Translations under genes and position numbers: made by a program
The notes under the pieces: generated by a model
What the model was told of the DNA's origin: nothing
What the model saw: the letters and a program-made list of their open reading frames with translations, nothing else
Databases searched by the model: none
Shown here: piece by piece, positions 7,254 to 28,039 of the stretch
Numbering within the stretch: position 1 is the stretch's first letter
Layout of the letters: each line of letters opens with the position of its first letter
Sequence record: SRR20825010_1457
Direction: 5' to 3' (one strand)
DNA: 45,186 nt

Positions 7254-9494
7254 ATGAGATTATCATTTTCTTTTTTCTTTTCTCTTTCGCTTATCGTTTT
7301 TTCATGTAAACCGTCTTTCAATGAACCCCAGATTTCACTGGAGGATTATAAGGTAGAAGAAGGTTTTGAATTGGAGATGGTGGCCTCCGAACCCCTTTTG
7401 ACGGCTCCGGTAGCTATAGATTTCGATACTAAAGGACGCATATGGGTCGCTGAAATGGCGGGATTTATGGTTAATTTGGAAGGTGATGATGAGGATTTGC
7501 CCAGCGGGTCCATTAAAATTCTGGAAGATATTGATAATGATGGTATTATGGACCATTCCAAGACATTTTTGGATAGTTTGGTAATGCCAAGGGCTTTAGC
7601 GCTCGTTTATGGCGGGTTGCTTTACGCAGAATCCCCTAATCTCTATTTTGTCGAGATTAAGGATGATAAACCGGTAAATAGGGTGTTGGTAGATTCTCTT
7701 TATGCTACTGTGGGCAACCCTGAACATCAACCCAATGGCTTAATGATGAATTTGGATAATTGGATCTATAATGCCAAATCCAATTTCAGATACCAACGTA
7801 AAGACGGAGTGTGGAAAAAGGAACCTACAACCAACAGAGGGCAGTGGGGTATTTCCCATGATAATTTTGGAAGGCTTTATTACAACAATAATTCTACCCA
7901 ACTTTTGGGCGATCATATACTTCCCAATAGATTGGTCCGCAATAAATATTTTATTCCCAGAAAAGGGGTCGATGAAACCTTGACCAAGGATAATCGGGTT
8001 TATCCCTTGCATGCGGCATCTGTGAATCGAGGATATGAAGAGGGGGTTTTAAACCAGGACAGTCTCTTGGTCAATGTTACGGCGGCCTGTGGGCCATTGG
8101 TCTACAGGGGAGGAATGTTCCCGGCCGATTATGATCAAAATGTCTTTGTTTGTGTTCCTGAGGCCAATCTGATAAAAAGAAATATCCTATCCTTTTATGG
8201 AGATCGTGTTGAGGCCAAACAAGCCTGGCAGGGAAAAGAATTTTTGGCATCCACGGATGAAGGTTTCCGGCCTGTGAATTTGTCCAACGGGCCCGATGGT
8301 AATATGTATGTGGTAGATATGCACAGAGGTGTAATTCAACATTATGCATTTTTGAGCCCTTATTTAAAGAAGATATCGGCAGAGAAGAAATTGGATACTA
8401 TTCTAGATTATGGAAGGATATTACGGGTTCGGTCTAAGGACAAGCTGGCAAGGGAAATTCCTGACCTGGAGACTTTACCTGCACCCCGATTGTTGGATTT
8501 TTTGAAGGATTCCAATGGTTGGATACGGGATAGGGCCCAACAATATCTAATCCATAAAAATGATAAAGGCGTTTTGCCCGGACTCAAAGAAATGGCTTTG
8601 GACAACAAAAGCCCTTTGGCACAATTACACGCGCTTTATGTCTTAAAAGGCCTTAATGTACTATCTTTCGACTTCCTGCAGCAATTGGCCATAAGTGGTG
8701 GTCCCGAAGCTACAGCGCATGCTTTGGTCCTAATGGAGGATTATGCCTTTGAAAAAAATGTTCCCAAAGCAAAAGATCTTTTTGCCGAACTGTTGAACAG
8801 GAATGAACCCATGTTGGATCTATATCTGTCCACAACGTTGGGCATCTGGGCCAAATATGATCAAGAAGTGTTTTTTTCTTTTATTTATGATCTGTCCGCT
8901 AAATATAAAGATAATGTTATAGTTCAAGAAGCTATACTCAGTGGTTCCGAAGGAGTTATGTCGGCTTTGAAGTTAAAGTTGGAGGAGAAGGACAATTTGA
9001 AGAATACGGACCTTGATGTATTGGCGGCGGCAAGTTTGGAAAGGCAAGAAAATAATAGACCTAATTATATTTATTCAACCCAGATTGCAAGGGCAGATTC
9101 TAGAACCAATGGAGCCATACTTTTTCGACAAATATGTGCCTCCTGCCATTCCAGTAGTGGTGAAGGTATCCGTGGATTGGCACCGCCATTGGTTGGGTCC
9201 GAGTATATTTCCAACCATTTGGAACAATTAGGGCTTATTATTCTTCACGGATTAAAGGGGCCATTGCTCATCAATGGGGAGGTATATGATAACAACCATC
9301 AAATGCCAGGCCTGAAGTACAATAAAAGTCTTTCGGATAAGGATATTTCGGATATAATATCCTATGTGACCAATGCATTTTCGGTTAACCCAAAAGGATT
9401 GAAGCCGGAAAAAATAAAGGAATTAAGGGGTGTTTCCTCTAAAGATGGTATGGAATATACCGAAAAGGAATTGTTCGAACAGATTGGAAAATAA
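7254..9494 (+). CDS. Lipoprotein, PVC-type/membrane-bound dehydrogenase-like beta-propeller with C-terminal cytochrome c domain
   Basis: Lipobox VFSC; GFELEMVASEP...PVAIDFD..GRIWV, FRPVNLSNGPDG.MYVVDMHRG; HEAT-like middle; haem motif CASCH with distal MP. Confidence 0.8.
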   Translation: MRLSFSFFFSLSLIVFSCKPSFNEPQISLEDYKVEEGFELEMVASEPLLTAPVAIDFDTKGRIWVAEMAGFMVNLEGDDEDLPSGSIKILEDIDNDGIMDHSKTFLDSLVMPRALALVYGGLLYAESPNLYFVEIKDDKPVNRVLVDSLYATVGNPEHQPNGLMMNLDNWIYNAKSNFRYQRKDGVWKKEPTTNRGQWGISHDNFGRLYYNNNSTQLLGDHILPNRLVRNKYFIPRKGVDETLTKDNRVYPLHAASVNRGYEEGVLNQDSLLVNVTAACGPLVYRGGMFPADYDQNVFVCVPEANLIKRNILSFYGDRVEAKQAWQGKEFLASTDEGFRPVNLSNGPDGNMYVVDMHRGVIQHYAFLSPYLKKISAEKKLDTILDYGRILRVRSKDKLAREIPDLETLPAPRLLDFLKDSNGWIRDRAQQYLIHKNDKGVLPGLKEMALDNKSPLAQLHALYVLKGLNVLSFDFLQQLAISGGPEATAHALVLMEDYAFEKNVPKAKDLFAELLNRNEPMLDLYLSTTLGIWAKYDQEVFFSFIYDLSAKYKDNVIVQEAILSGSEGVMSALKLKLEEKDNLKNTDLDVLAAASLERQENNRPNYIYSTQIARADSRTNGAILFRQICASCHSSSGEGIRGLAPPLVGSEYISNHLEQLGLIILHGLKGPLLINGEVYDNNHQMPGLKYNKSLSDKDISDIISYVTNAFSVNPKGLKPEKIKELRGVSSKDGMEYTEKELFEQIGK

Positions 9495-9571
9495 CCTAAG
9501 GGATTTTATCTGTTTTCTTGAGCAATGAAAGTTTAGGATAAAATAAAATTAAAATTAAATTCGGTAGTAAG

Positions 9572-10981
9572 ATGAAGACTTTTATTAATGATGATTTTCT
9601 ATTGCAGAGCGACTTTGCCAAAACCTTGTATCACAATTATGCAAAGGAATTGCCCATAATTGATTATCACAATCACTTGCCGCCCCAAGAGATTGATGGG
9701 AACCGGGTTTTTGAAAACATAAGTCAAGCTTGGTTGGCAGGGGATCATTATAAATGGAGGGCCATGCGGGCTTTTGGGATAGATGAACATTATATAACCG
9801 GCAATGCCACGGACAAAGAGAAGTTCCTTAAATGGGCCCACACGGTACCCTATACAGTAAGAAACCCTTTATATCATTGGACGCATTTGGAGCTGCAGCG
9901 TTATTTTGGGGTACAGGAGTTGTTGGGGCCTGGGAATGCCGAGGAAATATATGATCGTACTTCGGCAATGCTACAGCAAAGTTCCCACAATACCGTGGGA
10001 TTATTGCAACAGCAAAAAGTAGAATCCCTGTGTACTACAGATGAATCTATAGATTCCCTTCAATTTCATAAAAACATTAAGCAAAAAGGGATTTCACCAA
10101 AAGTTTTTCCAACCTTCCGCCCAGATAAGACCTTTGCCATAGAACAGGGAGGGACCTATGTTGCCTATTTGCAGAAATTGGGAGCGGCGTCCAACATAAA
10201 TATAGAGTCCTATAACGACTTATTGGCCGCCTTGGAAAATCGGATAAACTATTTTCATGAACAGGGTGGTAGGCTTGCGGATCATGGATTGGAACAACTC
10301 TATTATTTTAAGGAAGGAACCTATAATGCCGAAAGTTTGTTTAAAAAAGCTTTGGATGGTAAAACTCTTGTTGTGGAAGAAGTCCAATATTTCAAGGCAC
10401 AGGTGTTGCTATTTTTAGGAAGATGCTATCACAAAAAAGGTTGGGTGCAGCAATTCCATATTGGGGCTATCCGTGATAATAACAAAAGGCTATTGTCCAA
10501 ATTGGGCCCGGATACCGGTTTCGATTCTATAGGCGATTTTTCACAGGCTCGTGCATTGAGCGGTTTCTTAAACGAACTGGACGGGACGGATCAATTGGCA
10601 AAAACCATAATCTATAACCTTAATCCTGCCGATAATGAAGTAATAGCTTCTATGGTAGGTAATTTTAATGACGGAACCGTTAAGGGAAAGGTGCAGTTCG
10701 GTTCAGGTTGGTGGTTTCTAGATCAGAAAGACGGAATGGAAAAACAAATGAATGCCCTATCCAATATGGGCCTTTTAAGCTGTTTTGTGGGAATGCTGAC
10801 CGATTCCAGGAGCTTTTTATCCTTTCCAAGACACGAATATTTTAGAAGGATCTTATGCAATCTAATTGGCAATGATGTTGTAAATGGCGAGTTGCCGACA
10901 GATGAAAAGTTATTGGGTAAAATTGTGTCCGATATATCCTATTACAACGCCAAGAACTACTTCGATTTTAATAAGCCGTAA
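9572..10981 (+). CDS. uxaC: Uronate (glucuronate) isomerase
   Basis: PIIDYHNHL, GDHYKWRAMR, NPLYHWTHLEL, GPDTGFDS, GSGWWFLD, GMLTDSRSFLSFPRHEYFRR. Confidence 0.97.
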   Translation: MKTFINDDFLLQSDFAKTLYHNYAKELPIIDYHNHLPPQEIDGNRVFENISQAWLAGDHYKWRAMRAFGIDEHYITGNATDKEKFLKWAHTVPYTVRNPLYHWTHLELQRYFGVQELLGPGNAEEIYDRTSAMLQQSSHNTVGLLQQQKVESLCTTDESIDSLQFHKNIKQKGISPKVFPTFRPDKTFAIEQGGTYVAYLQKLGAASNINIESYNDLLAALENRINYFHEQGGRLADHGLEQLYYFKEGTYNAESLFKKALDGKTLVVEEVQYFKAQVLLFLGRCYHKKGWVQQFHIGAIRDNNKRLLSKLGPDTGFDSIGDFSQARALSGFLNELDGTDQLAKTIIYNLNPADNEVIASMVGNFNDGTVKGKVQFGSGWWFLDQKDGMEKQMNALSNMGLLSCFVGMLTDSRSFLSFPRHEYFRRILCNLIGNDVVNGELPTDEKLLGKIVSDISYYNAKNYFDFNKP

Positions 10982-10985
10982 GCAA

Positions 10986-11246: not shown

Positions 11247-11258
11247 AGTTCCTGCCCA

Positions 11259-12176
11259 CTAATTTACCCCGATTGGGCTATCATCACATTTAAGGTCCCC
11301 CACAACGTATTGCATGCCATCCAAGAAGAACTGAAGCAATTCCGGATTGTCCATACTTTGGGCATTGTGGGATGGAGAGGTGTAAAATACCCTGCCTTTA
11401 CCATGCCTCTTGATCCAGGAAACATATATGGTATTGTCACTGACTGCCTTCTTAACCCCTTCTAGTTTGTCCGCTTCAATGTACAGTAGCGGTCTAAAAT
11501 TATAATCGGAATAAGCATTGTTGAAGAAATAGGGCTCGTCCACATGGGTAAATCCATTTCCCTTAAAGGCCTGTACCATAGGGTGGTTTGGATTAACCTC
11601 TTTTAAGTGCATTTCCTGTTGCTTGGGGTGGTAGTCAAAGCTGCCCCCTGTCATTTTGCTAAACTCCTTGGAGTTGTTCTGTACGGTAATGGCACCATGT
11701 AGGATCATTAGACCACCTCCCTTGGCCACATAATCCATCAAATTATTTTCGTATTCTGCGGCCTTTATGGCAATGGAATTGTCGTCCAGGCTACTATTCT
11801 TCTTTAACAAATCCCAGAACAGGTCCCTTTTTGGCCCTGCCGGATTTGAGTTGTTCAAGATTATGGCATCGTATTGCTTTAAGTTCTTCTTCTCAAAGCT
11901 GTCAATGTCCCTTGCAATGGTAACCTCAAAGGCCCCGGATTTTGTAGCTAAAATTTTCAGCATTTCGTCATTGTGGGGAATGGTCCAATGGTAAAATCCT
12001 GTATGCTGCGAAAAAACCATTATTTTTTTTACATCGGCCTTGACCCTCGGCGCGGACGGTGCCAAAGATTCTATTTTGGCAAGCCATTGATCGGTTATTG
12101 GAAATTCTTCTAGTCCTTGGGCGAAAATTGTGCCAACATAAAGAAAAGTTAGTAAGGTGTAAACTGCTTTGTTCAT
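11259..12176 (-). CDS. ThuA-like domain protein, exported
   Basis: Signal peptide (TIFA-Q); GFYHWTI, YVAKGGGLMILHGA, GGSFDYHP, DEPY, VSWIKRHGKGRVFYTSPSH typical of the ThuA fold. Confidence 0.82.
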   Translation of the reverse strand: MNKAVYTLLTFLYVGTIFAQGLEEFPITDQWLAKIESLAPSAPRVKADVKKIMVFSQHTGFYHWTIPHNDEMLKILATKSGAFEVTIARDIDSFEKKNLKQYDAIILNNSNPAGPKRDLFWDLLKKNSSLDDNSIAIKAAEYENNLMDYVAKGGGLMILHGAITVQNNSKEFSKMTGGSFDYHPKQQEMHLKEVNPNHPMVQAFKGNGFTHVDEPYFFNNAYSDYNFRPLLYIEADKLEGVKKAVSDNTIYVSWIKRHGKGRVFYTSPSHNAQSMDNPELLQFFLDGMQYVVGDLKCDDSPIGVN

Positions 12177-12185: not shown

Positions 12186-13202
12186 TTAATTAAATGTGGA
12201 TTCTCTCTTTATTAATTTATGTCTAAGGGTAATGGAATTAGCGGGCTGCAAGTTGATACTGCCGTTCAACTGACTTATTACACTTTGTCCCGCCAAAATT
12301 CCCATTTCGTATCCAGGGTAATTTACGGTGGTTAAAGTAGGGGTAACCAAATCCGATATAGGGTCATTGTTAAAACCGACTATTTTTATGTCCTGTGGAA
12401 TTTTATAATTCTCTCTTTTTAATGCTTTGATGATATGGGCGGCAAAATTATCACTGGACACAAAAAGTCCGTCTACCGCATTTTTCATACTTTTTATATA
12501 ATGAATCACGGAATCCACGTCATCAGGACTTAGATCGGTTTCCAAGAAATGGGACTGGTCAAAATCCAGTTGGTGTTTCGCAATAGCGTCCTTAAACCCT
12601 TCCAGCCTGTCCAAATATACGTTACGTTTTATATTTCCGCCAACGTAAAGTAAGTTTTTGCAGCCTAATGATATTAAATGTTCCGTAGCTTCAAATCCGG
12701 CTAGTCTGTTATTGATGATTATCGTGGAGCAATTGGGTAAATTGTGTACCCTATCAATAAATATAAGAGGGATTTTATTGCGGATGTAATGCGCAAAATG
12801 GTCAAAATTGGAAGTGTCGTAGGCCAAAGATACCAAGAGAGCGTCCACTCCGCTATCGTAGAGCGTTTTTGCATTTAGTTTTTCCTTTTCCATGGATTCC
12901 AAAGACTGACTGATAATCAAATTGTAGCCGGCGTCATTGACTATTTTTTCGATGCCTGCCAACACGGTGGACATAAATATGGAATTTAATTTAGGAACGA
13001 TGACCCCTATGGTATTGGATTTCTGTTTGCTGAGGTTTACTGCAAATTTATTGGTCTTATAGCCCAGCTCATTGGCCATTGAGATAACCCTTTCCTTGGT
13101 TTTCATACTTATGGATGGATGGTCGTTAAGACTTCGACTTACCGTTCCGGCCGAAACACCTAGCGTTTTGGCCAGATCGTATATGGTTATTTTCTTGCTC
13201 AT
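12186..13202 (-). CDS. LacI family transcriptional regulator
   Basis: HTH TIYDLAKTLGVSAGTVSRSLN followed by a sugar-binding domain; divergent from susC. Confidence 0.96.
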   Translation of the reverse strand: MSKKITIYDLAKTLGVSAGTVSRSLNDHPSISMKTKERVISMANELGYKTNKFAVNLSKQKSNTIGVIVPKLNSIFMSTVLAGIEKIVNDAGYNLIISQSLESMEKEKLNAKTLYDSGVDALLVSLAYDTSNFDHFAHYIRNKIPLIFIDRVHNLPNCSTIIINNRLAGFEATEHLISLGCKNLLYVGGNIKRNVYLDRLEGFKDAIAKHQLDFDQSHFLETDLSPDDVDSVIHYIKSMKNAVDGLFVSSDNFAAHIIKALKRENYKIPQDIKIVGFNNDPISDLVTPTLTTVNYPGYEMGILAGQSVISQLNGSINLQPANSITLRHKLIKRESTFN

Positions 13203-13364: not shown

Positions 13365-13392
13365 TTTATTACGCAATCGGTTGCGTAATAAA
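13365..13392. promoter_or_regulatory. LacI-type operator
   Basis: TTTATTACGCAA-TCGG-TTGCGTAATAAA: perfect 12-bp arms, central CG typical of LacI-family sites, between lacI and susC. Confidence 0.85.
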
Positions 13393-13487: not shown

Positions 13488-16400
13488 ATGAGAAATTTAT
13501 TTAAAAAAGTTAGGTGCAGCGCTCTAATACTTATGATGCTGTTGTGCACCTTATTTTCGGCTTCTGTCTATGGACAAGATGGCTTCATGGTTTCGGGAAC
13601 CGTGATTGATGATCTGGGCCTTCCCTTGCCTGGTGCATCCATTGTTGAAAAGGGAACGACCAACGGCGTAGTTTCCGATTTTGATGGAAACTTTAGCTTT
13701 GAGGTGGCCAATCCGAATGCCACATTGACCATTAGTTATGTTGGCTTCGAAACTCAGGAACTGCCCATAAATGGTAATTCTGTATTAAATGTCACAATGC
13801 AAGCCACGGCTTCTACCTTGGACGAGGTGGTTTTGGTGGGTTACGGTGCGGTGAAAAAGAAAGATCTTACCGGAGCAATTTCACAAGTGGATGCCGATGC
13901 GCTTTCAGATCAATCTACGAACTCGGTTACCGATGTGTTGAGAGGTAATGTAGCTGGTCTTAGTATCGGACTTTCTGCCTCTCCAAAAGGCACTAGTCAA
14001 ATTAGGATTCGTGGTAACAATAGTCTTAGTGCCGGCTCCAGTCCTTTGATAGTTGTGGACGGAATGATATATAATGGGGACTTGTCCGATATAGCTCCCT
14101 CAGATATTGATAAACTGGATGTTATGAAAGATGCCAGTTCTGCTGCCGTTTATGGGGCCAGAGGAGCCAGCGGTGTAATTTTGGTCACCACCAAAAGAGG
14201 TACTAGCGATAAGCCAACTATTAATATTAATACCAGTGTTGGGATAGCAACGGATGCCTATAAGGAAAGACCTTATGATGCCCAGGGTTACGCAGACTGG
14301 AGAACAGATGTATTTAAAAGTATTAACCCGCAGAACACCATTGACGATCCAGGTAGATATGATAACCCCAATAACTTACCGGCCGGGGTAACCTTGGATC
14401 AATGGCTGGCCTATGATGGGTCTGCCGGAGACCCTACAAGGGCTTGGCTGAACAGGATAGGATTTCAGGATGTGGAAATAGAAAACTATTTGGCCGGCAA
14501 CAACATTAACTGGTACGACCGAATTATGCAGACTGGATTTCGTAACGATATAAACACTAGTATCTCCGGACGAAATGGAGGGTTGAACTACTATTGGTCC
14601 ATTGGCCGTACTTCCAACGAGGGTATAGTAAACGGTGAAAAGTTTGAGGCTCTACGTTCGCGCTTAAATTTGGATGCTAAAATTACGGATTGGTTAACCG
14701 TAGGTATGAATACCCAATTTGCCAAGCGTAATGAAGGTTTTATTGCGGCAGATAGAGGTCAAATTGAAAGATCTTCACCTTGGGGTTCTGAATTTGACGA
14801 TGAGGGAAATATCCGTCTAAGCCCTCAGGACGACAATGGGGCAGGGGCGGTTAACGCATTTTTGGCTCAAAAATTTAATGATCGTATAGACTTGGATCAT
14901 ACATTTAATTCAAGGGTGTATGCCAAGATTAAGTTGCCATTGGGCTTTTCATATGAAGTGGGGTATACCAACCGCTTGGAATTTCAAGAATATTACAACC
15001 ATGCCATGGCAGCTAGTCCACAAAACGTAGTTGGTTCGGCAGAGAGACAAGTGACCAAGATCAATGAATGGCAATTGGACAACATTTTGCGTTGGGACAA
15101 GACCATTGATAAGCATTCTTTTAATTTGATGTTTTTGGTGTACGGCGAAAAATATCAAAGTTATTTCACCCGGGCCAGGGCAAACACCTTTGAGCCCAGT
15201 GATGCCCTGGGTTATAGTGCCTTGGAATTGGGTACGGTGCAGACAGTGGACAGCGAAGATGAAACAAGTACTGGCGATGCGGTAATGACTCGTTTGAATT
15301 ACAATTACGATTCCCGTTATCTTCTTACCCTGACAATGCGTAGGGATGGTTATTCCGCCTTTGGAGAAACCAATAAGCGGGCATATTTTCCATCAGTAGC
15401 CGGGGCTTGGACCATTTCCAATGAATCTTTTTTTAATTCGGAATTTGTTAATTTCCTTAAACTTAGATTGTCTTACGGGGAGAATGGGAACCGTGATATT
15501 GGTAGGTTTACAGCCTTATCTAGGTTAAATGCCAATAAATATCTAAATGTTGATGCCGGTGGAAATGTTATAACCGTACCAACTTTTGATAACGGAACCC
15601 AAGAAAATACCGAGTTAAGATGGGAACGTACCAAGGCGACCAATTTAGGATTGGACTTTAGTTTGGCCAACGGAATTGTTGAAGGTTCCATTGAGGCCTA
15701 CCAGAATATCACCAACGATCTTATTGTTACTAGGCAGTTGCCGAATATTATAGGTTTTAATAATGTGACCACGAATTTAGGTGAGATAGAAAACAAAGGG
15801 TTGGAGTTTACCCTGGCCTCGCAAAATATCAATAGGGAGAACTTTCAATGGAATACCAGTTTTAATTTCTCATTGAACAGGAATAAGATCAGGAAATTGT
15901 ACGGTGATCTGGACGAAAATGGGGAGGAACTGGATGATATTACAAACCAACGCTTTATAGGGCAGGCCACAGACGTTATATGGGGTCAGGAAGCCATAGG
16001 TATCTGGCAGACAAATGAGGCTGCTGAAGCCGCCGAATATGGTGTTTTCCCGGGGGATTGGAAAATAAATGATGTGGATAATAGTGGGGACTTCACCGTG
16101 GAGGATAATGTTTTTCAGGGTCATAGATCACCGCGATTCAGTTGGGCCATGTCCAACAGGTTTACCATGTTGAAGAATTTCGATTTTTCCTTTGAGGTGT
16201 ATTCCAATTGGGGGCAAAAGAGGGTATTTAATGAGGCAAAAAACAGAAACGGTTTTATCGATAGGACCAATTCCATACAAACACCTTACTGGACGCCTGA
16301 AAACCCTATAAATGATTATGCCAGATTGTTTTCCAGTGATGGTAGTTCCAATTTTTCGATTTGGAGGGATGCTTCATTTATTCGATTAAGTAATATTACT

Positions 16401-18480: not shown

Positions 18481-18535
18481 TAGTTGTATTGAGTTAATTA
18501 GTTTTTTGTAAATTTCATCATCCAAACCTATTTTA

Positions 18536-19762: not shown

Positions 19763-19827
19763 ACCCGAGGACAAGGGTTAATACCCATGTTTTCAGCCAA
19801 ATAATTTGTAAATTAAAATCAAAAAAG

Positions 19828-21204
19828 ATGCAAAGAAGAAAGTTTATCAACAACTCCTTATTGACTACTGCAGCTGTTGTTGGATTTCCAACTATAGTAC
19901 CGGCAAGCGTATTTGGGAAAAATGCACCGAGCAATAAGATCAATATCGGGCAAATTGGTTGCGGAAGAATAGCCCGTGATCATGATATTCACGATACCAT
20001 TAGATTTGACCAATCCCGTTATGTTGCAGTATGTGATCTGGATTCCAATAGGGCTGCCGATGCAAAGGTATTGGTAGACAAGTTCTATAAGGAGAAGACA
20101 GGGAAGGATAAATATATGGACACCAAAATCTACGACGACTATCGCGAAATGTTACTTAATAAGGACATTGATGCGGTGGTTATTAGTACCCCGGACCACT
20201 GGCATTCACAACCAGCTATGGAAGCTGCCTTGGCCGGAAAGGATATATACCTTCAGAAGCCAACCTCCCTTACGGTAAGGGAAGGCCAGCAGTTACGTGA
20301 TGCGGTTCAGAAAACGGGCGTTATTCTGCAGGTAGGAACCCAACAAAGGGCTATGCCCCAGTTTAGAGTAGCTGCGGAGTTGGTCAGAAATGGCCGTATA
20401 GGTAAAATCCATACGGTGAAAATTGGGCTTCCAGGGGATCCGGCAGGACCTGAAGCACCAGCAATGCCGGTTCCTAAAAATTTAAACTTTGACATGTGGT
20501 TGGGATCAACACCAGAAGTTCCCTATACCGAAATAGGTGTTCATCCGCAGCAGGGCTATAGTAGGCCGGGCTGGCTTCGTCTTAGAAGCTATGGAGCAGG
20601 TATGATAACAGGTTGGGGACAGCACCATTATGATTCCGCAGCATGGGGAATGGATACTGAATTAACAGGGCCAAAATCCGTAGAGGCTTTGGCAGAGTTT
20701 CCAAAGTCGGGTCTGTGGAACGTGCATGGTGATTTCTTTGTGAAACACGAATACGACAACGGAATTACAGTTTATACCAGTGGAGGTTATACCAACGGAA
20801 TACGTTATGAGGGTACGGACGGATGGATTTTTGTGTCCCGAGGGGCCTATCAAGCTTCAGCCTCAGATCCTGTGGATCAGGAAAAGAGTGCCAAAGCCCT
20901 TAATGCCTCTGATCCCAAAATATTGGAATCGGTAATCGGTGATAACGAGACCCATTTGGAGAAGATCGATGATCAACACGGTAACTGGTTGGATTGTATT
21001 AAAACAAGGAAAGCTCCGATTTCACCCATTGAAAAAGGACACAAGGCCTGCGTAACTTGTTTGATCAGTGATATCGCCATGCAATTTGATAGAAAATTGG
21101 AGTGGGACAATGATAAGGAAATGTTTATTAACGATGATGAGGCCAACGCCATGTTGCACAGGGAACAAAGAAAGCCTTATGGTACCGACTTTGTGAAAGT
21201 TTAG
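19828..21204 (+). CDS. Gfo/Idh/MocA family oxidoreductase, Tat-exported
   Basis: MQRRKFI twin-arginine leader; IGCGRIA, DAVVISTPDHWH, IYLQKP, VGTQQR, FDMWLG, WGQHHYD. Confidence 0.92.
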   Translation: MQRRKFINNSLLTTAAVVGFPTIVPASVFGKNAPSNKINIGQIGCGRIARDHDIHDTIRFDQSRYVAVCDLDSNRAADAKVLVDKFYKEKTGKDKYMDTKIYDDYREMLLNKDIDAVVISTPDHWHSQPAMEAALAGKDIYLQKPTSLTVREGQQLRDAVQKTGVILQVGTQQRAMPQFRVAAELVRNGRIGKIHTVKIGLPGDPAGPEAPAMPVPKNLNFDMWLGSTPEVPYTEIGVHPQQGYSRPGWLRLRSYGAGMITGWGQHHYDSAAWGMDTELTGPKSVEALAEFPKSGLWNVHGDFFVKHEYDNGITVYTSGGYTNGIRYEGTDGWIFVSRGAYQASASDPVDQEKSAKALNASDPKILESVIGDNETHLEKIDDQHGNWLDCIKTRKAPISPIEKGHKACVTCLISDIAMQFDRKLEWDNDKEMFINDDEANAMLHREQRKPYGTDFVKV

Positions 21205-21306: not shown

Positions 21307-22683
21307 ATGAAGTATAATGTTTTAGCCCTATTGGTAATCTTATGTCTAGGTTGCGGGGAAAGTAAAAAAGAAGTGAAACCCACTATGGACGATAATCCTG
21401 GGCAAGTTAGACTAATGACCTTGGACCCAGGACATTTTCATGCTGCTCTGGTTCAAAAAACGATGTATGAGGGGGTAGATTCCACCATCTATGTTTTTGC
21501 ACCCGAAGGACCGGAAGTAAACGATTTTTTAAACAAAATCAAGTCCTACAATACAAGGACTGAAAACCCCACACATTGGAAGGTAGACAGTTATTTTGGA
21601 AACGATTATTTAGAAAAAATGATTTCCCAAAAACCGGGCAATGTCATGGTTGTGGCAGGGAAAAACTCCAAAAAAATAGACTATATTTTGGCGGCTGTAA
21701 AGGCCGGGTTGAACGTTTATGCGGATAAACCGTTGGTGATCAACCCAGAGGGATTCCAGAAATTGGAGGAGGCCTTCAAAATAGCAAATGAAAAAGGGGT
21801 CATGATCTATGATATTATGACAGAGCGTTTTGAGGTTACTACCGGAATGCAAAGGCAGTTTTCCATGTTGCCGGAGGTCTTTGGGCAAGTATTGGAGGGA
21901 AGCAAGGAAGAACCGGCCATCATAAAGGAAAGTGTGCATCATTTCTTCAAGTATGTTTCAGGACAGCCATTGGTTAGACCAGCGTGGTTCTTTGATGTTA
22001 ATGAAGAGGGTGAGGGTATTGTAGATGTAACCACCCACTTGGTAGATTTAGTGCAATGGGAACTTTTTCCGGACGAAATTATTAACCGTACGGATATTGA
22101 AATGGTGGAGGCAAAGCGTTGGCCAACAATCTTGACATTGGAGGAATTTAAAAGGGTTACCGGCTTGGAGAATTATCCGGATTACCTGCAGAAAGACTTA
22201 GAGGGCGATAAACTTAAGGTGTTCTGCAATGGGGAAATGTTGTATAAAATTAAAGGAAAATATGCCAAGGTTTCTGTGATATGGAATTATGAAGCTCCTG
22301 AAGGCACAGGGGATACCCATTATAGTATTATGAGGGGTACTAAAAGTGACCTTATCATTAAACAGGGAGCGGAAGAAAATTATAAGCCTACCTTATATAT
22401 CAAATCCAAGGGAGGGGAAAATTTTGATAATGTCATAGCTGAGGCAATAGAACAGCATATAAATTCCAAATTTGCAGGAACTAAAGCGGAAAAAGTATCA
22501 GAAGACATGTGGAAGATCAATATTCCAGATGAATTTAAAATTGGTCATGAGGCACATTTTGGCCAAGTGACGCAGAATTATCTGCGTTATCTGGAAAATG
22601 GTAAATTGCCCAACTGGGAGGTACCCAATATGATTACCAAGTATTACACGACCATTGAAGCATATAAAATGGCCAAAGAATAA
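21307..22683 (+). CDS. Divergent Gfo/Idh/MocA-like oxidoreductase lipoprotein
   Basis: Lipobox CLGC; LDPGHFHAALVQK, GLNVYADKP (EKP-like), DIMTERFE, DVTTHLVD, GHEAHF. Confidence 0.75.
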   Translation: MKYNVLALLVILCLGCGESKKEVKPTMDDNPGQVRLMTLDPGHFHAALVQKTMYEGVDSTIYVFAPEGPEVNDFLNKIKSYNTRTENPTHWKVDSYFGNDYLEKMISQKPGNVMVVAGKNSKKIDYILAAVKAGLNVYADKPLVINPEGFQKLEEAFKIANEKGVMIYDIMTERFEVTTGMQRQFSMLPEVFGQVLEGSKEEPAIIKESVHHFFKYVSGQPLVRPAWFFDVNEEGEGIVDVTTHLVDLVQWELFPDEIINRTDIEMVEAKRWPTILTLEEFKRVTGLENYPDYLQKDLEGDKLKVFCNGEMLYKIKGKYAKVSVIWNYEAPEGTGDTHYSIMRGTKSDLIIKQGAEENYKPTLYIKSKGGENFDNVIAEAIEQHINSKFAGTKAEKVSEDMWKINIPDEFKIGHEAHFGQVTQNYLRYLENGKLPNWEVPNMITKYYTTIEAYKMAKE

Positions 22684-22837
22684 GGTTATATATTTTACAT
22701 AGAGACTTAGGGGGGACTTTTTGAACTATGAAAACCTTTGGTAATTGGCCTAGGGTAAATATTGGATATTATGTTAAATATTGTGCCCTTGTGTTATATT
22801 TGGGTTTTTTTAAAATAGAATTATAAAAACAAAATTG

Positions 22838-23656
22838 ATGAGTAAACTTTTTTCGATTGAAAATAAAATTTATGCCTTATCCGGTGCAACTGGTACTTTA
22901 GGAGGGTCAATTGCCAAGTATCTTGTAGAAAACGGAGCCAAGGTATTGCTCTTGGGCAGGTCCTTGGATAAACTGGAGGAAAAGTGCAAGGAATTGGATG
23001 CAATTGCTCCCAACAGTGCACATTTGTTCGTTTTGGATGTGATGGATGAAAAGCAATTAACCGAGTTGAAGAATACTATAACAACCAAGTTTAAGAGATT
23101 GGACGGACTAGTAAATTTGGCTGGAGGAAACATCCCTGGGGCTACTTTAAAACCGGACCAGACAATTTATGATATTGAGTTGGCCGATACTCAAAAAGTA
23201 GTGGACATAAATTTGTTCGGCACCGTAATTCCAACCATTGTACTAAGTGAAATTATGGCAAAACAAGGCTTTGGATCCATAGTGAATATATCTTCAATGG
23301 CAGCCAAACAGACCATTTCACGAGTGTTGGGCTATTCCATGGCCAAGGCAGGAGTGGATATCTTCACTAAGTGGATGGCCAATGAACTGGCTTCTAAGTT
23401 TAGTGATAAGATAAGGGTGAATGCCATTGCACCAGGTTTTTTCATAGGAAATCAGAATAGAAGGCTATTGACCAATGAAGACGGTTCCTTTACGGACAGG
23501 GGTGAAAAAATTATTACCAATACTCCAATGGGCCGTTTTGGGGATGCCTCAGAACTTAACGGAATGGTACATTATCTGCTAAGTGATGCTTCCTCTTTTG
23601 TGACAGGGACCATTTATGATATCGACGGAGGTTTTAGTTCCTTCTCTGGAGTATAA
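22838..23656 (+). CDS. uxuB: SDR oxidoreductase, probable D-mannonate oxidoreductase (fructuronate reductase)
   Basis: GATGTLG, NLAGGN, NISSM, YSMAK, RVNAIAPGFFIGNQNRRLL, TPMGRFG; directly upstream of uxuA. Symbol inferred from family and context. Confidence 0.8.
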   Translation: MSKLFSIENKIYALSGATGTLGGSIAKYLVENGAKVLLLGRSLDKLEEKCKELDAIAPNSAHLFVLDVMDEKQLTELKNTITTKFKRLDGLVNLAGGNIPGATLKPDQTIYDIELADTQKVVDINLFGTVIPTIVLSEIMAKQGFGSIVNISSMAAKQTISRVLGYSMAKAGVDIFTKWMANELASKFSDKIRVNAIAPGFFIGNQNRRLLTNEDGSFTDRGEKIITNTPMGRFGDASELNGMVHYLLSDASSFVTGTIYDIDGGFSSFSGV

Positions 23657-23889: not shown

Positions 23890-25092
23890 TTGAAAAATTT
23901 AAAAAAAACCCTGAGGTGGTTCGGTCCCAGTTTTGGAGTGTCTCTAAAGGATATCAGGGAATTGGGAGTGGATGGTGTGGTCACGGCATGCCACCAGGTC
24001 CCCATTGGAGAAATTTGGTCTTCTGAAGTTATAAGGGCGGTCCAAAAGGAAATAGAGTCCAATGGCTTGGAATGGTCCGTAGTGGAAAGTGTTAATATAC
24101 ACAAAGCCATTAAATATGGTCTTCCGGAAAGGGACTTTTATATCCGGAACTATATTGAGACTCTCCGTAATTTGGCAGAAAACAACATTAAGGTGGTCTG
24201 CTATAATTTTATGCAATTGATAGATTGGACCCGTACCAATTTAAATTACGTACTTCCAACAGGGGCTATAAGTTTATTGTACGACCCTGTGGCAATTGCT
24301 GCTTTTGATTTGTATATCCTGCAAAGAGATGGGGCAGATGAGGTCTATAGTAATGAAATAATCCATAAGGCCGAAAATTATTATAATGCCTTGGACCAGC
24401 AGGGACGTGAGCTGCTAAAAAGTGCTATATTGGCTGGGATGCCTGGCTCCAAGGATGCCATTCCCCTTTCCGATTTTAGGGACACACTCGAGGAAGTCAG
24501 TAAGATTGAAAAATCGGTCCTTAGGGAAAATCTGGCATATTTTTTAAAAGCGATTATTCCGGAGGCCGAAAAGCTGGGTATAAAAATGGCCCTGCATCCG
24601 GATGATCCACCATTTCCCGTTTTTGGAATTCCCCGTATAGCCTCTACCTACGAGGATTTGGAATTTATTTTGGATTGCGTTCCTTCATCCAGCAATGGAT
24701 TAACCTTTTGCTCTGGTTCCTTGGGAGCGGTAGACTCCAATGACCTTCTTAAAATTATTCGGGATTTTGGGCCACAAATTCATTTTTTACACCTAAGAAA
24801 TGTATCTAGGGAAGAAGACGGTAGATTCTATGAAGCCGCCCATTTGGATGGATCCATTCCCATGTCCAAGATAATGCTGGAAATTGTTAAGGAGCAATTA
24901 AGAAGACATGATAGTGGATATGGGGAGGTGGCAATACCCATCAGGCCGGATCACGGACATGTTTTGTTGGATGATAAAAAAAGAAAAGACGAATTCTATT
25001 CGGGGTATTCGCTAATAGGGAGGGCTATTGGTATGGCAGAGCTCTATGGCCTGGAAAAGGGCATTAGGGAAATGTTGTTCAAACCAGATTAG
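23890..25092 (+). CDS. uxuA: Mannonate dehydratase
   Basis: RWFGP, WSVVES, VVCYNFM..DWTRT, ALHPDDPP, GLTFCSGSLG, HLRNV, PIRPDHG, GYSLIGR; TTG start. Confidence 0.96.
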   Translation: MKNLKKTLRWFGPSFGVSLKDIRELGVDGVVTACHQVPIGEIWSSEVIRAVQKEIESNGLEWSVVESVNIHKAIKYGLPERDFYIRNYIETLRNLAENNIKVVCYNFMQLIDWTRTNLNYVLPTGAISLLYDPVAIAAFDLYILQRDGADEVYSNEIIHKAENYYNALDQQGRELLKSAILAGMPGSKDAIPLSDFRDTLEEVSKIEKSVLRENLAYFLKAIIPEAEKLGIKMALHPDDPPFPVFGIPRIASTYEDLEFILDCVPSSSNGLTFCSGSLGAVDSNDLLKIIRDFGPQIHFLHLRNVSREEDGRFYEAAHLDGSIPMSKIMLEIVKEQLRRHDSGYGEVAIPIRPDHGHVLLDDKKRKDEFYSGYSLIGRAIGMAELYGLEKGIREMLFKPD

Positions 25093-25222: not shown

Positions 25223-25236
25223 CGTTAACGTTAACG
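25223..25236. promoter_or_regulatory. Perfect 14-bp palindrome, candidate operator for the TRAP genes
   Basis: CGTTAACGTTAACG with central CG, just upstream of dctP. Confidence 0.55.
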
Positions 25237-25249
25237 TCCAATTTAAAAA

Positions 25250-26251
25250 ATGTCTATGCAAGTTTATAAATCCCTAATGAGAAAATTAGTTGTTACAATT
25301 GGTGTTTTGGTATGTTTAGGCTTGTATTCTTGTTCAGATATTACGGATCACAAAACCTTGTTCTTTGCACACTCCCTACCAATAACCCATCCAGTCCATA
25401 AAGGTATACTGGCCATGAAAGAAGCCCTTAATGAAAAATCGGGCGGAAAATTGCAGATTAAGGTTTTTCCTGATGGCCAGTTGGGTACAGAAAGGGAGGT
25501 CTTGGAATTATTGCAGATAGGGAGCGTGGCCATGACCAAGGTAAGTGCTGCCGCCATGTCTAGTTTTGCGCCGGAATATAGGGTTCTGGGAGTACCTTAT
25601 TTGTTTAGGGACAGCGAACATATGTTCAATGTCCTGGAGGGTAAAGTAGGGCAGGAGCTTCTGGAAGGAGGCAGCGAATATTTGCTACGCGGCCTCTGTT
25701 TTTACGATGCCGGGAGTAGAAGCTTCTATACCTTGGACGGATTTATAAAGACACCGGAGGATTTAAGGGGCAAAAAAATCAGGGTAATGAACGACCAAAT
25801 GGCGGTTAATATGGTAAACGACCTAGGTGGTTCTGCTACCCCTATGGCCTATGGTGAGCTTTATACTGCTCTTCAACAGCGAGTAGTGGATGGTGCAGAA
25901 AACAATGTTCCTTCCTTTGTAACCTCCAATCACTACGAGGTGTGCAAATTTTATACCTTGGACGAACATAGTATGGTACCGGATGTAGTGGTGGTAGGCA
26001 CCAAATTTTGGGATACCCTGAGCGATACTGAAAAAGGATGGTTGCAGGATGCGGCAGTTGAAAGCGTGAAAAAACAAAAAGTATATTGGAAGGAAAATGT
26101 AGAGGAGGGTATGAAAGTCCTTAAAGAGGCAAATGTGGAAATCTATTATCCGGATAAGACTCCCTTTGTTGAAAAGACCAAGCCGATTTTGGAGGAATTG
26201 ATCAAGGATCCAAAGATGAAAAAAATAATCGACCAAATTAACAATCAATAA
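25250..26251 (+). CDS. dctP: TRAP transporter substrate-binding protein (DctP family), lipoprotein
   Basis: FPDGQLG.ERE, DAGSRSFY, DLRGKKIRVM, ELYTALQQRVVDGAENN; lipobox LYSC; true start may be ATG 25277. Confidence 0.94.
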   Translation: MSMQVYKSLMRKLVVTIGVLVCLGLYSCSDITDHKTLFFAHSLPITHPVHKGILAMKEALNEKSGGKLQIKVFPDGQLGTEREVLELLQIGSVAMTKVSAAAMSSFAPEYRVLGVPYLFRDSEHMFNVLEGKVGQELLEGGSEYLLRGLCFYDAGSRSFYTLDGFIKTPEDLRGKKIRVMNDQMAVNMVNDLGGSATPMAYGELYTALQQRVVDGAENNVPSFVTSNHYEVCKFYTLDEHSMVPDVVVVGTKFWDTLSDTEKGWLQDAAVESVKKQKVYWKENVEEGMKVLKEANVEIYYPDKTPFVEKTKPILEELIKDPKMKKIIDQINNQ

Positions 26252-26739
26252 TGCAAACGACGTACAGAATATTGAATAAGGCCATTGAAGGGTTGTTGGT
26301 AATAATATTTAGTTTATTGGTGCTGGATGTGGTGTGGCAGGTAGTCTCCCGATATGTGGTGGGACAATCCAGCTCCTTTACCGAGGAATTCGCCAGATTT
26401 GCGTTGATCTGGCTAACCGTTTTGGGTGCCGCTTATATCAACGGACAAAAGGAAGGACATCTGTCCATGGATTTTTTATTATCCAAACTTCCAGTAGACA
26501 AACAAAAAAGGAGACATAGAATAATCCAGGTAGTGATGGCTGTTTTCGCCTTGGTCATTATGGTTATTGGTGGAGGTAATTTAGTTTACACTACTTTGAA
26601 GTTGGGGCAATTGTCCCCTGCTTTATTGGTGCCACTTGGCTATGTGTACGCTATTGTGCCTATTAGTGGGCTAATGATCATTTTCTTTTCCGTTTATCAT
26701 ATAAAAATAACCTTTAACGCCAACAACAATGAGTATTGA
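26251..26739 (+). CDS. dctQ: TRAP transporter small permease
   Basis: QVVSRY, TEEFAR..LIWL..LGAAY, HLSMD; four TM helices; TAATG overlap with dctP. Confidence 0.93.
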   Translation: MQTTYRILNKAIEGLLVIIFSLLVLDVVWQVVSRYVVGQSSSFTEEFARFALIWLTVLGAAYINGQKEGHLSMDFLLSKLPVDKQKRRHRIIQVVMAVFALVIMVIGGGNLVYTTLKLGQLSPALLVPLGYVYAIVPISGLMIIFFSVYHIKITFNANNNEY

Positions 26740-28039
26740 AACCATAAGTATCCTAGTATTGTTTATTAGTTTTATGGGTTTGTTGGCCTACGGAGTACCA
26801 GTGGCTTATGCCATTGGGATTTCAACAACGATAACATTATTGATCAATATAGCATTCATGCCTTCCATCACAACGGTAAGTCAAAGGATGACGACAGGTA
26901 TCGATAATTTTGCCTTATTGGCCATTCCCTTCTTTATTTTGGCAGGGGAAATTATGAATCGGGGAGGTATTGCGAATCGTTTGATAGACTTTGCAAAATC
27001 GCTTATCGGTAGTTTGCCCGGTGGATTGGCATATGTTAATATAATTTCCGCCATGTTGTTTGGGGCCATATCAGGATCGGCCATTGCAGCTGCATCGGCC
27101 ATTGGAAGTACTTTGACGGAAAAGATGGCTAAAGACGGTTATCCAAGGGAATTTAGTGCAGCTGTTAATATTAGTGCATCAACAACAGGACTATTGATCC
27201 CGCCTAGTAACGTTTTAATAATTTTTGCGTTGGCCAGTGGAGGAACCGCATCGGTAGCCGCTCTGTTTATTGCTGGGTATATACCCGGTATTTTGGTAGG
27301 TCTGGCCATTATGATGATGGTGTATTTTTATGCTAGAAAAAAAGGCTTGCCCAAGGAAGAAAGGGTGGGTTTTAAAAAGCTGTTCCGCGATTTTAGGAAT
27401 GCTTTTTTAAGTTTAACCTTATTGGTTATAGTCGTGGGAGGTATTGTAGTCGGTATTTTTACCGCTACGGAAGCAGCGGCTATTGCTGTAGTCTATGCTA
27501 TGTTACTTGGTTTTGTAAATAGGGAACTTAAGTTTGCCGATTTTAGGCCTATCCTTCTTCGAAGCGCCAAAACTACTGCAATAGTGATGTTCTTAATTGC
27601 TACTTCCATGGCCATGTCCTGGTTATTCTCTTTTGAGTCCATTCCGCAGTCATTAACGGGCTTCCTTTTGGAATCGGTTAAAAACCCCTTATTGGTATTG
27701 CTTTTTATAAATATCACCTTACTGGTAGTAGGTACATTTATGGATATGACCCCGGCAGTACTTATTTTTACACCTATATTTTTGCCAGTAGTTATGGCCT
27801 TAGGGATGCACCCGGTGCAATTTGGGATGGTAATCGTTCTCAATTTGTGTATTGGGGTATGTACCCCTCCAGTAGGTACGCTGCTGTTTGTGGGTAGTGG
27901 TGTTGCCAAGGTGCCTGTTACAAAAGTGATAAAACCGTTACTGCCCCTATTGGCTGCAATGACTGCCGTATTGTTGATATTGACTTATGTTCCAGAACTT
28001 TCCTTGTGGCTGCCCAGAGCTTTTGGGTTGATAGATTAA
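26729..28039 (+). CDS. dctM: TRAP transporter large permease
   Basis: LLAIPFFILAGEIM, SGSAIA, LIPPS, FTATEA, PVQFG, TPPVG. Confidence 0.95.
   Translation: MSIETISILVLFISFMGLLAYGVPVAYAIGISTTITLLINIAFMPSITTVSQRMTTGIDNFALLAIPFFILAGEIMNRGGIANRLIDFAKSLIGSLPGGLAYVNIISAMLFGAISGSAIAAASAIGSTLTEKMAKDGYPREFSAAVNISASTTGLLIPPSNVLIIFALASGGTASVAALFIAGYIPGILVGLAIMMMVYFYARKKGLPKEERVGFKKLFRDFRNAFLSLTLLVIVVGGIVVGIFTATEAAAIAVVYAMLLGFVNRELKFADFRPILLRSAKTTAIVMFLIATSMAMSWLFSFESIPQSLTGFLLESVKNPLLVLLFINITLLVVGTFMDMTPAVLIFTPIFLPVVMALGMHPVQFGMVIVLNLCIGVCTPPVGTLLFVGSGVAKVPVTKVIKPLLPLLAAMTAVLLILTYVPELSLWLPRAFGLID

Follow-up and report, generated by a model that had tools for sequence, protein, structure and literature searches.

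How can a bacterial locus built around a glycan uptake system release sugars if no classical carbohydrate-active enzyme (CAZyme) is encoded in it? This question is raised by positions 7254-28039 of record SRR20825010_1457, a stretch of DNA of 45,186 nt referred to here as the window, in which a SusC/SusD pair, a LacI-family repressor, genes of hexuronate catabolism and a tripartite ATP-independent periplasmic (TRAP) transporter accompany five exported proteins: a ThuA-domain protein, a DUF6807 protein, the two oxidoreductase-like proteins Gfo1 and Gfo2, and a cytochrome c fusion protein. An initial annotation from the sequence had named these genes and read them as a hydrolase-free polysaccharide utilisation locus (PUL) for uronates; open reading frame (ORF) calls, Pfam (region scan at E ≤ 0.001) and NCBIfam place all of them where it had put them. 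We show that the fixed unit is ThuA-DUF6807-Gfo1-Gfo2, which is often, though not always, joined by LacI, SusCD, the hexuronate genes and the cytochrome protein. We tentatively propose, at somewhat less than an even chance, that this unit serves a LacI-controlled periplasmic route in which a glycoside or oligosaccharide carrying glucuronic acid is processed through oxidation and elimination, not through classical hydrolysis. The window has a G+C content of about 40%, and its DUF6807 protein is 94% identical to the counterpart in Arenibacter sp. F20364, suggesting an Arenibacter-like member of the Flavobacteriaceae as its source.

A conserved core of four exported proteins

Scanning species-representative genomes with a DUF6807 alignment yielded 238 relatives, of which the best 80 loci were kept, all from Flavobacteriaceae (Arenibacter, Maribacter, Zobellia, Kriegella, Ulvibacterium, Pricia, Muriicola and others). 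Gene presence was counted in the 51 loci with full 10-kb flanks, which stem from species other than that of the window; the sample is phylogenetically narrow, including about 20 Arenibacter, and the counts represent non-independent events. ThuA and Gfo1 accompany DUF6807 in 51 of 51 loci and Gfo2 in 50. As the core is conserved in all 51 loci of other species, the gene arrangement is not due to chance. The other partners vary: LacI is present in 43 of the 51 loci, SusCD in 34, UxuB in 33, UxuA and TRAP in 32 each, the cytochrome protein in 29 (with edge-cut fragments in 7 further loci, not limited to the 51) and UxaC in 23, resulting in 19 different gene combinations. At least one hexuronate gene (UxuA, UxuB, TRAP or UxaC) is found in 41 of 51. 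A uronate PUL is therefore a frequent configuration of the system and not the system itself, SusCD being absent from 17 and all hexuronate genes from 10 of the 51 loci. In the window, susC and susD lie adjacent with a 16-bp gap, the paired arrangement expected of a PUL; across the loci the pair is no integral, conserved part. In four loci (L031, L033, L048 and L054) the SusC/SusD proteins at the same position are only 30-35% identical to those of the window, the flanking genes being 57-90% identical, which points to a non-orthologous replacement of the uptake pair. Gfo1 shows 79-99% identity across 77 loci, compared to 54-94% for DUF6807 and 51-94% for the neighbouring proteins, suggesting an unusually strong constraint for a periplasmic enzyme.

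The core is encoded in the window by thuA on the minus strand (11259-12176; PF06283, 122.8 bits against a cut-off of 33.4) and by three genes on the plus strand: the DUF6807 lipoprotein, also annotated as 'PmoA family' (18536-19762; PF14100, 223.3 bits), Gfo1, a Gfo/Idh/MocA-type NAD(P) dehydrogenase (19828-21204; PF01408, 68.1 bits, and PF19051), and Gfo2, a lipoprotein combining a degenerate Gfo-type N-terminus (PF01408, 25 bits) with an Oxidoreduct_C domain (21307-22683; PF16490, 438.2 bits). The cytochrome protein, likewise a plus-strand lipoprotein (7254-9494), consists of DUF7133 (PF23500, 289.7 bits) and, behind a helical middle segment, cytochrome c at the C-terminus (PF00034, 31.5 bits). 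Export signals of the window proteins were judged by eye from the translations. Gfo1 begins with MQRRKFI and carries the motif RRKFI of the twin-arginine translocation (Tat) pathway, ThuA has a Sec-like leader, and a hydrophobic leader followed by Cys is seen in the cytochrome protein (where it terminates in LIVFSC), DUF6807, Gfo2 and the TRAP binding protein DctP. A crude script recovered the respective leader feature in the orthologues of DUF6807 (80/80), Gfo2 (72/73), the cytochrome protein (29/29) and DctP (37/37), an RRx[FL] motif in 76 of 77 Gfo1 orthologues and, under a strict rule, a leader in 54 of 74 ThuA orthologues.

No Pfam family of glycoside hydrolases (GH), polysaccharide lyases (PL) or sulfatases was detected within 7254-28039 at E ≤ 0.001, nor in the five exported proteins at E ≤ 1, and the intergenic gaps, none longer than 285 bp, leave no room for a further classical CAZyme gene. 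The absence of such enzymes from the ORFs of the region, on which the initial annotation had staked its interpretation, is thereby borne out for Pfam families. The attribute hydrolase-free is nevertheless partly semantic, since dbCAN3 places the syntenic Gfo protein of Maribacter in GH177/GH109 (PMC11036162), families which cleave glycosides by the same oxidation-elimination logic. GH109, GH177 and GH179 are described as NAD-dependent, poorly characterised enzymes of the Gfo/Idh/MocA fold, often with Tat signals, acting by transient oxidation; 31 Fervidibacter members of NAD-dependent GH families were inactive when expressed (PMC11535203, PMC11701701). Gfo1 resembles them in fold, Tat signal and, through its Maribacter counterpart, in the dbCAN3 label, whereas the GH109 structure 2ixa matches Gfo1 over residues 34-194 only, i.e. 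the Rossmann part (E 3e-10).

The surroundings of the core tell a similar story. The 415 other ORFs in the 80 loci form 166 clusters, of which 97 representatives were scanned, covering all 48 clusters seen in at least two loci and 49 of the 118 singletons; among these no classical CAZyme recurs beside the core, the recurrent neighbours being housekeeping genes (ZIP transporter, RlmL, DUF6048, DUF6452 and others). Sporadic matches comprise GH3 in three loci, on the opposite strand, and single-locus cases of GH51 (L026), GH30 with a weak GH17-like match (L064) and a weak GH2 match (L050). In L070, L071 and L075 a sulfatase gene (PF00884 plus SGSH_C) is inserted into the operon directly upstream of DUF6807, which hints at a decorated or sulfated glycan substrate in those species. 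Upstream of ThuA, e.g. in L021, L024, L034, L035, L039, L040 and L045, we observe another set of PVC-type haem proteins, with DUF1501 (11 loci) and DUF1553/Planctomycete-cytochrome, sometimes together with an NHL-repeat protein (9 loci).

Relatives of the core proteins

Gfo1 provides the closest connection to characterised enzymes. Its best NCBIfam model is the BT_2158_fam glycoside 3-dehydrogenase (NF058561, E 1.9e-36), with which it shares the combination of a twin-arginine signal and a Gfo/Idh/MocA Rossmann domain. In the PDB, 8tdf and 8tdh rank first for Gfo1 (profile E 1.9e-23 and 7.2e-22); of its 458 residues, the alignment covers those from the start of the mature protein up to 236. These two entries presumably represent the AL3/BT3 enzymes of a recent preprint (10.1101/2024.03.25.586180). 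The neighbouring accession 8tdi is named 'P2B11 Glucuronide-3-dehydrogenase', matches Gfo1 in the Rossmann part only (E 9e-9), and bears a name which in this preprint denotes a fosmid. AL3/BT2158 were described there as Tat-exported enzymes with tightly bound NAD which start glycoside cleavage by oxidation at C3, the roles of 1,2-lyases and hydratase then falling to a TIM-barrel protein and DUF1080; reduction of 3-ketoglucose, or possibly transfer via cytochromes, regenerates the cofactor, and a Gram-positive cluster runs the same chemistry on glucuronides (10.1101/2024.03.25.586180). We predict Gfo1 to be a glycoside or uronate secondary-alcohol dehydrogenase. An AlphaFold model from 31 close orthologues (predicted local distance difference test, pLDDT, 59.9) was too poor for use. 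For ThuA no PDB sequence match was obtained at E ≤ 0.01; its pairing with Gfo1 in all 51 full-flank loci is of the type known from ThuAB which, like LacABC, is described as a cytochrome c-dependent periplasmic 3-ketoglycoside dehydrogenase (PMC8121099). Gfo2 matches PDB entry 4oo3, deposited as 'hypothetical protein', with 578 bits.

DUF6807 has no PDB sequence match at E ≤ 1. An AlphaFold2 model built from 81 diverse sequences (pLDDT 94, predicted template modelling score 0.92) is all-beta and galactose-mutarotase-like, and Foldseek returned the PL26 exo-rhamnogalacturonan lyase 5xqg as top match (E 4.6e-8, query TM-score 0.56-0.59, 9-10% identity), followed by galactose-mutarotase-like domains, both from mutarotases and from GH38, GH2 and GH36 enzymes. 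The structure search against lyases which the initial annotation had suggested thus finds one on top, for a predicted model, the likeness being in fold only and not extending to PL26 membership by sequence. His146, His164, His166, Asp185, Glu234 and Asp252 either never vary or are conserved to 90% or more across the 81 sequences, and some Arg residues are likewise invariant or nearly so. Among 13 long DUF6807 proteins from the representative search, the fusion partners are ThuA (3), DUF1080 (2), a xylose-isomerase-like TIM barrel, DUF3500, a cupin, a SASA esterase, NlpE/META and a beta-propeller (1 each), with no recognisable partner in 2. A few genes from the core of L058, moreover, a 1179-residue protein (17536-21072, minus strand) joins ThuA to a glucose/sorbosone-dehydrogenase (GSDH) propeller, a PKD domain and cytochrome c. 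Natural fusions hence connect DUF6807 and ThuA with each other, with the lyase/hydratase families known from 3-keto cleavage and with cytochrome c. We propose DUF6807 to be a sugar-transforming enzyme which may act on the oxidised intermediate. A role as methane monooxygenase subunit, implied by the old family name, was rejected in view of a soluble all-beta lipoprotein with a sugar-binding fold. In the ESM Atlas the best named lead was DUF4861 at 0.77, below the 0.9 mark. No function is assigned to DUF6807 and no description of the ThuA-DUF6807-Gfo1-Gfo2 module as a unit is given in the literature searched, most subscription journals lying outside its scope; one review mentions the DUF number only, and a soil metagenomic operon carries a PF14100 gene between two unconventional beta-galactosidase genes, which is suggestive and uninformative on function.

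Taken together, the relatives of Gfo1, the ThuA domain and the fusions and fold of DUF6807 support a connection of the exported proteins to 3-keto-glycoside chemistry, one element of an earlier interpretation that is partly supported as a whole. DUF1080 (3-keto-disaccharide hydrolase domain) itself occurs near the core in five other loci (L055, L056, L060, L063 and L066), where the DUF1080 protein, of 640 residues, and another of 677 residues that matches a cupredoxin-like family (SoxE) are encoded upstream of the cytochrome gene, separated from it by a haemolysin-III-like gene.

The cytochrome protein matches TIGR02604 ('PVC-type heme-binding CxxCH', membrane-bound-dehydrogenase-like) with 181.6 bits against a cut-off of 122.2 and, in its C-terminus, cytochrome c domains of the PDB. 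We propose it as electron outlet to the respiratory chain. In another account of the locus, the module cleaves no glycosidic bond at all. ThuA, Gfo1 and the cytochrome c would form a respiratory periplasmic dehydrogenase carrying out net oxidation of a free or bound neutral sugar or polyol, with electrons passing through cytochrome c to oxygen, the resulting keto-sugar, aldonate or uronate would feed TRAP and UxaC/UxuB/UxuA, and DUF6807 and Gfo2 would possibly be isomerase- or lactonase-like helpers. We consider such a respiratory dehydrogenase unlikely, though the most probable of the alternatives. It agrees with the presence of the cytochrome protein beside the core in 29 of 51 loci plus the seven fragments, including 7 of the 10 loci devoid of hexuronate genes, with the ThuA-GSDH-cytochrome c fusion in L058 and with the dispensability of SusCD in 17 of 51 loci, as would suit a substrate of small size. 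The reported cytochrome c dependence of ThuAB (PMC8121099) and the induction of SusCD and the TRAP binding protein of Maribacter by the monosaccharide L-arabinose (PMC11036162) argue in the same direction. On the other hand, DctP clusters with binders of unmodified glucuronate and galacturonate, the DUF6807 fusions to DUF1080 and a TIM barrel point to lyase or hydratase steps, and the sulfatase insertions suggest a glycan as substrate. Furthermore, no route is known that leads from a free hexose to glucuronate without protection of C1.

Operator, hexuronate branch and expression of a related locus

The lacI gene (12186-13202, minus strand; PF00356 plus Peripla_BP_3), whose product scores under every NCBIfam equivalog cut-off, is separated from thuA by 9 bp, and both are transcribed divergently from a predicted operator, so that thuA is probably co-transcribed with lacI. 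This operator, predicted by the initial annotation and confirmed as a palindrome, is the strandless, perfect 12+4+12 repeat TTTATTACGCAA-TCGG-TTGCGTAATAAA at 13365-13392, between lacI-thuA and susC and 96 bp before the latter. A central CG, present in this palindrome, is typical for LacI operators. Its 20-nt core (consensus across loci TTAyGCAATCGGTTGCrTAA) occurs once in the window compared to 0 expected from 100 shuffles. It is found with at most five mismatches in 51 of 52 LacI-bearing loci (L047, the exception, has six) and in none of the LacI-less loci, where the best match has at least six mismatches. It always lies ahead of the first gene of the DUF6807 row, i.e. susC, or DUF6807 where SusCD is missing. 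A position weight matrix from 51 sites detected no second operator in the window at a score of at least 8, including the regions upstream of the cytochrome gene, uxaC, uxuB, uxuA and dctP; with its only site before susC, the window gives no support for a co-regulation of uxaC and the cytochrome gene with the susC row. In L041, L061 and L069, which have neither LacI nor its operator, a different palindrome, TTTCGTTAACGTTAACGAAA, takes the operator's place about 140-150 bp upstream of DUF6807, with a shifted, partial version of it in L042; it is probably the site for another regulator.

The row controlled by this operator would begin with susC (13488-16616, plus strand; TIGR04056, 741.4 bits against a cut-off of 368), encoding a TonB-dependent outer-membrane transporter, and susD (16633-18480, plus strand; PF07980, 193.1 bits, and PF14322, 69 bits), encoding a lipoprotein, continue through DUF6807, Gfo1 and Gfo2, and extend on the same strand to genes for a short-chain dehydrogenase/reductase (SDR)-type D-mannonate oxidoreductase with UxuB function (22835-23656; NF006132, 315.7 bits against 281), the mannonate dehydratase UxuA (23890-25092; TIGR00695, 448.6 bits against 199.55) and the TRAP components DctP (solute-binding lipoprotein, 25250-26251; PF03480, 264 bits), DctQ (small permease, 26251-26739; PF04290, 91.3 bits) and DctM (large permease, 26729-28039; TIGR00786, 455.3 bits against 268). 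The cytoplasmic glucuronate isomerase UxaC is encoded apart from this row, behind the cytochrome gene (9572-10981, plus strand; PF02614, 695.8 bits; NF002794, 602.4 bits against 387). No terminator-like hairpin was found on the plus strand in the gaps between Gfo2, UxuB, UxuA and DctP, and a strong one with a 13-pair stem and a T-rich tail (28065-28096, plus strand) closes the row 3' of dctM. For these two reasons susC to dctM fits one long unit distinct from the phosphonate genes downstream; the gaps of 151-233 bp before uxuB, uxuA and dctP could provide own promoters.

UxaC, the SDR, UxuA, SusC and DctM all exceed curated NCBIfam cut-offs, so that the enzymes of a glucuronate pathway to 2-keto-3-deoxygluconate (KDG) are complete in the window. 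The best PDB matches of DctP are 4n8y, 4x8r, 4ovr, 4n91, 4p1l and 4mhf (E 9e-72 to 1.5e-57), of which 4n8y is galacturonate-bound and 4x8r glucuronate-bound (PMC11668362), 4n91 is glucuronate-specific and 4mhf takes glucuronate as well as galacturonate (PMC7660916). DctP thus appears to fall, by sequence, into the clade of glucuronate/galacturonate binders and to form with DctQ and DctM a hexuronate TRAP transporter; the cytoplasmic glucuronate branch of the earlier interpretation stands.

The same branch would also accommodate a redox-neutral function of the core. Gfo1 with its bound cofactor could oxidise and re-reduce one carbon of an unusual uronate or uronoside, converting e.g. L-iduronate, D-mannuronate, L-guluronate or galacturonate to D-glucuronate or D-fructuronate, with DUF6807 as mutarotase-like helper. 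The host genera (Arenibacter, Maribacter, Zobellia and others) are associated with algae, in which unusual uronates are plentiful. Only UxuB and UxuA are attached to the core, UxaB and UxaA never occurring in the loci examined, and the modelled galactose-mutarotase fold of DUF6807 with its conserved His, Asp and Glu residues would suit such a helper; redox-neutral chemistry would also come naturally to a Gfo enzyme exported via Tat with its cofactor bound (PMC8121099). An epimerase or isomerase is nonetheless improbable in our view: it leaves the cytochrome c protein without a role, and the fusion partners of DUF6807 are of lyase and hydratase types, not epimerases. No link in expression to alginate or ulvan is known, and no search was aimed at one.

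Expression data are available for a related locus of Maribacter sp. MAR_2009_72, JM81_RS16570-16625 (PMC11036162), which we equate with the window row by gene order and product names, not by sequence. It comprises genes for a glucuronate isomerase (JM81_RS16570), ThuA (JM81_RS16575), LacI (JM81_RS16580), SusC and SusD (JM81_RS16585 and JM81_RS16590), a PmoA family protein (JM81_RS16595), the Gfo/Idh/MocA protein labelled 'GH177/GH109' by dbCAN3 (JM81_RS16600), an oxidoreductase C-terminal domain protein (JM81_RS16605), an SDR (JM81_RS16610), a mannonate dehydratase (JM81_RS16615) and a TRAP binding protein (JM81_RS16620). In the published proteome (PMC11036162, supplementary table 1) neither SusC nor SusD gives any intensity on glucose or galactose; both appear on arabinogalactan and reach at least the same level on arabinose. 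The TRAP binding protein was detected in three of three arabinose and one of three arabinogalactan replicates. Compared to glucose, levels on arabinogalactan are raised about 2.6-fold for Gfo1 and 2-3-fold for ThuA, and Gfo2, the SDR and UxaC are nearly constitutive. Larch arabinogalactan contains some glucuronic acid (PMC11036162). The row lies within the 58-gene 'PUL 8', adjoining arabinose genes and genes of GH43, GH51 and GH105; the authors call the function of the 'GH109' protein unknown and do not treat the row as a unit, counting its genes to a PUL for arabinose glycans (PMC11036162).

Several of these observations would also fit a mere co-location, in which the redox module acts on an unrelated substrate, SusCD and the hexuronate genes were collected at a recombination-prone spot, and the glycan is depolymerised by classical GH and PL enzymes encoded elsewhere. 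The 19 gene combinations in 51 loci, the exchange of SusCD for 30-35% identical pairs in four loci and the promoter-sized gaps before uxuB, uxuA and dctP are in line with it, as are the almost constitutive enzyme levels of Maribacter and the GH43, GH51 and GH105 genes sharing 'PUL 8' with the row (PMC11036162). We assign little probability to co-location without a shared pathway, considering that the hexuronate linkage outlasts rearrangements in 41 of 51 loci, that no terminator-like site interrupts Gfo2 to DctM and a strong one follows DctM, that no CAZyme neighbour recurs, and that the cytochrome gene and uxaC remain adjacent in two different positions (one in the window, the other in L024 and L037).

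A separate cluster at 28362-41293 is devoted to catabolism of 2-aminoethylphosphonate and phosphonoacetate, with PhnA, the phosphonoacetate hydrolase (464 bits; cut-off 407.55), a protein resembling phosphonoacetaldehyde dehydrogenase (629 bits, slightly below 635.65), a PhnW-type transaminase, three major facilitator superfamily transporters, an HpnZ-like alcohol dehydrogenase, a flavin adenine dinucleotide-dependent oxidoreductase and phosphoesterases. We rejected these genes as part of the locus in view of the hairpin behind dctM and the occurrence of PhnA after DctM in no more than 8 of 80 loci, each of them from Arenibacter. At 3368-7018, immediately upstream of the cytochrome gene, a histidine kinase with five PAS domains and a stand-alone receiver protein are encoded, a pair which keeps this place in the Arenibacter loci L006, L008 and L020.

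A proposed oxidation-elimination route and its relation to known systems

These data are compatible with a model according to which SusCD, where present, would import the substrate into the periplasm, where Gfo1, exported in folded state via Tat with a bound nicotinamide cofactor, and ThuA would act as a ThuAB-like pair oxidising a ring hydroxyl, most likely the C3-OH, to a ketone. DUF6807 and/or Gfo2 would then perform elimination and hydration, releasing the sugar, and the cofactor would be recycled by reduction of a keto-sugar or by electron transfer through the DUF7133-cytochrome c lipoprotein to the respiratory chain. TRAP would import the free D-glucuronate, and UxaC, the SDR-type UxuB and UxuA would turn it into KDG. 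The gene content, export signals, operator, conserved core, relationships in family and fold, and natural fusions are observed; we infer the oxidised position, the allocation of steps to proteins, the substrate and the path of the electrons. Glucuronides are the presumed substrates, and the sole expression data, those of Maribacter, indicate induction of SusCD by arabinogalactan and arabinose. The cleavage steps are allotted to proteins of unknown function because the exported proteins of the window include, according to Pfam, neither a TIM-barrel lyase nor DUF1080 (PF06439), the sole AP_endonuc_2 match in the window being a weak secondary one inside UxuA (25.9 bits, below cut-off).

This absence is the first of several points that weigh against the oxidation-elimination route. 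Gfo1 reaches 125.7 bits, far from the NF058561 equivalog cut-off of 750, covers profile positions 1-263 of 487 only, and cannot be aligned to 8tdf in its C-terminal, substrate-binding half. Gfo2 cannot carry a cofactor from the cytoplasm, given its Sec/lipoprotein leader, and matches the Rossmann family only weakly. No characterised enzyme is among the four core proteins. KDG kinase (KdgK) and 2-keto-3-deoxy-6-phosphogluconate aldolase (KdgA) are not among the window ORFs of at least 100 residues and may be encoded elsewhere in the genome. The incomplete attachment of SusCD and of the hexuronate genes to the core and the single operator before susC, described above, also count here. Finally, the Maribacter enzymes change 2-3 fold only and are nearly constitutive, and L-arabinose induces SusCD and the TRAP binding protein no less than arabinogalactan does, in a set of growth sugars that included no glucuronide (PMC11036162). 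The Maribacter gene order matches that of L031 and L048, whose SusCD are 31-35% identical to the window pair; the Maribacter SusCD are for this reason probably of the divergent 30-35% type, and the inducer may not transfer to the window.

Compared to known systems, the proposed route comes closest to those of Alistipes (AL1-AL5) and B. thetaiotaomicron (BT2156-BT2160), in which a Tat-exported, cofactor-bound Gfo/Idh/MocA dehydrogenase is likewise combined with a Sec-exported protein and a lipoprotein (10.1101/2024.03.25.586180; PMC8121099), no classical glycosidase is present, a dedicated regulator is encoded, and to which the best PDB and NCBIfam relatives of Gfo1 belong. In contrast to these, the window has DUF6807, ThuA and Oxidoreduct_C in place of the TIM-barrel 1,2-lyase and DUF1080 hydratase, LacI instead of SusR/DUF6377, and in addition the cytochrome c fusion protein, SusCD, TRAP and the hexuronate genes. 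ThuAB of rhizobia and Agrobacterium, which forms 3-ketodisaccharides from trehalose, maltitol and sucrose isomers, is a ThuA and Gfo/Idh/MocA pair as well, ThuA being without known mechanism; in the window both partners have export signals, the dehydrogenase via Tat, their genes lie in divergent operons, and uronate genes accompany the pair in place of a trehalose ABC transporter. The P2B11 cluster of a Gram-positive gut bacterium performs oxidation-elimination on alpha- and beta-glucuronides, the substrate class proposed here, with two oxidoreductases and two sugar-phosphate-isomerase-like proteins and, as the preprint presents it, no export (10.1101/2024.03.25.586180). Hexuronate TRAP transporters with UxaC-UxuB-UxuA (STM3169, Apre_1383, Bpro_3107) share with the window the glucuronate/galacturonate-clade DctP beside uxu genes, whereas in the window TRAP is in one gene row with SusCD and exported redox proteins. 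Non-Koshland 3-keto cleavage and the hexuronate pathway are already known, and it is the specific module that is not described as a unit in the literature searched.

A bolder version of the oxidation-elimination route, which we consider rather unlikely, would be that ThuA, DUF6807, Oxidoreduct_C and the Tat-exported Gfo constitute a third, non-homologous set for non-Koshland cleavage, specialised on glucuronosyl linkages and coupled to aerobic respiration via the DUF7133-cytochrome c protein. If true, the cell would gain energy from the bond-breaking step itself, three widespread families of unknown function would receive a first function, and a class of CAZyme-poor PULs in marine Bacteroidota would be explained. 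Gene sets of Gfo, DUF6807, ThuA and cytochrome proteins are numerous in Planctomycetota and Verrucomicrobiota, to which the explanation would extend. The question is directly testable, since the proteins are soluble, exported and conserved, and Gfo1 of Zobellia galactanivorans, from a genetically tractable genus, is 90% identical to that of the window. CAZyme annotation is the standard predictor of the glycan diet of marine Bacteroidota, and a conserved, expressed uptake locus without a detectable classical CAZyme represents a blind spot. If oxidation-elimination of uronic-acid glycosides proves true, DUF6807, the ThuA domain, PF16490 and the DUF7133-cytochrome proteins would obtain a testable function, and an alternative glycan chemistry would reach from gut anaerobes to aerobic marine bacteria, where it would be linked to respiration.

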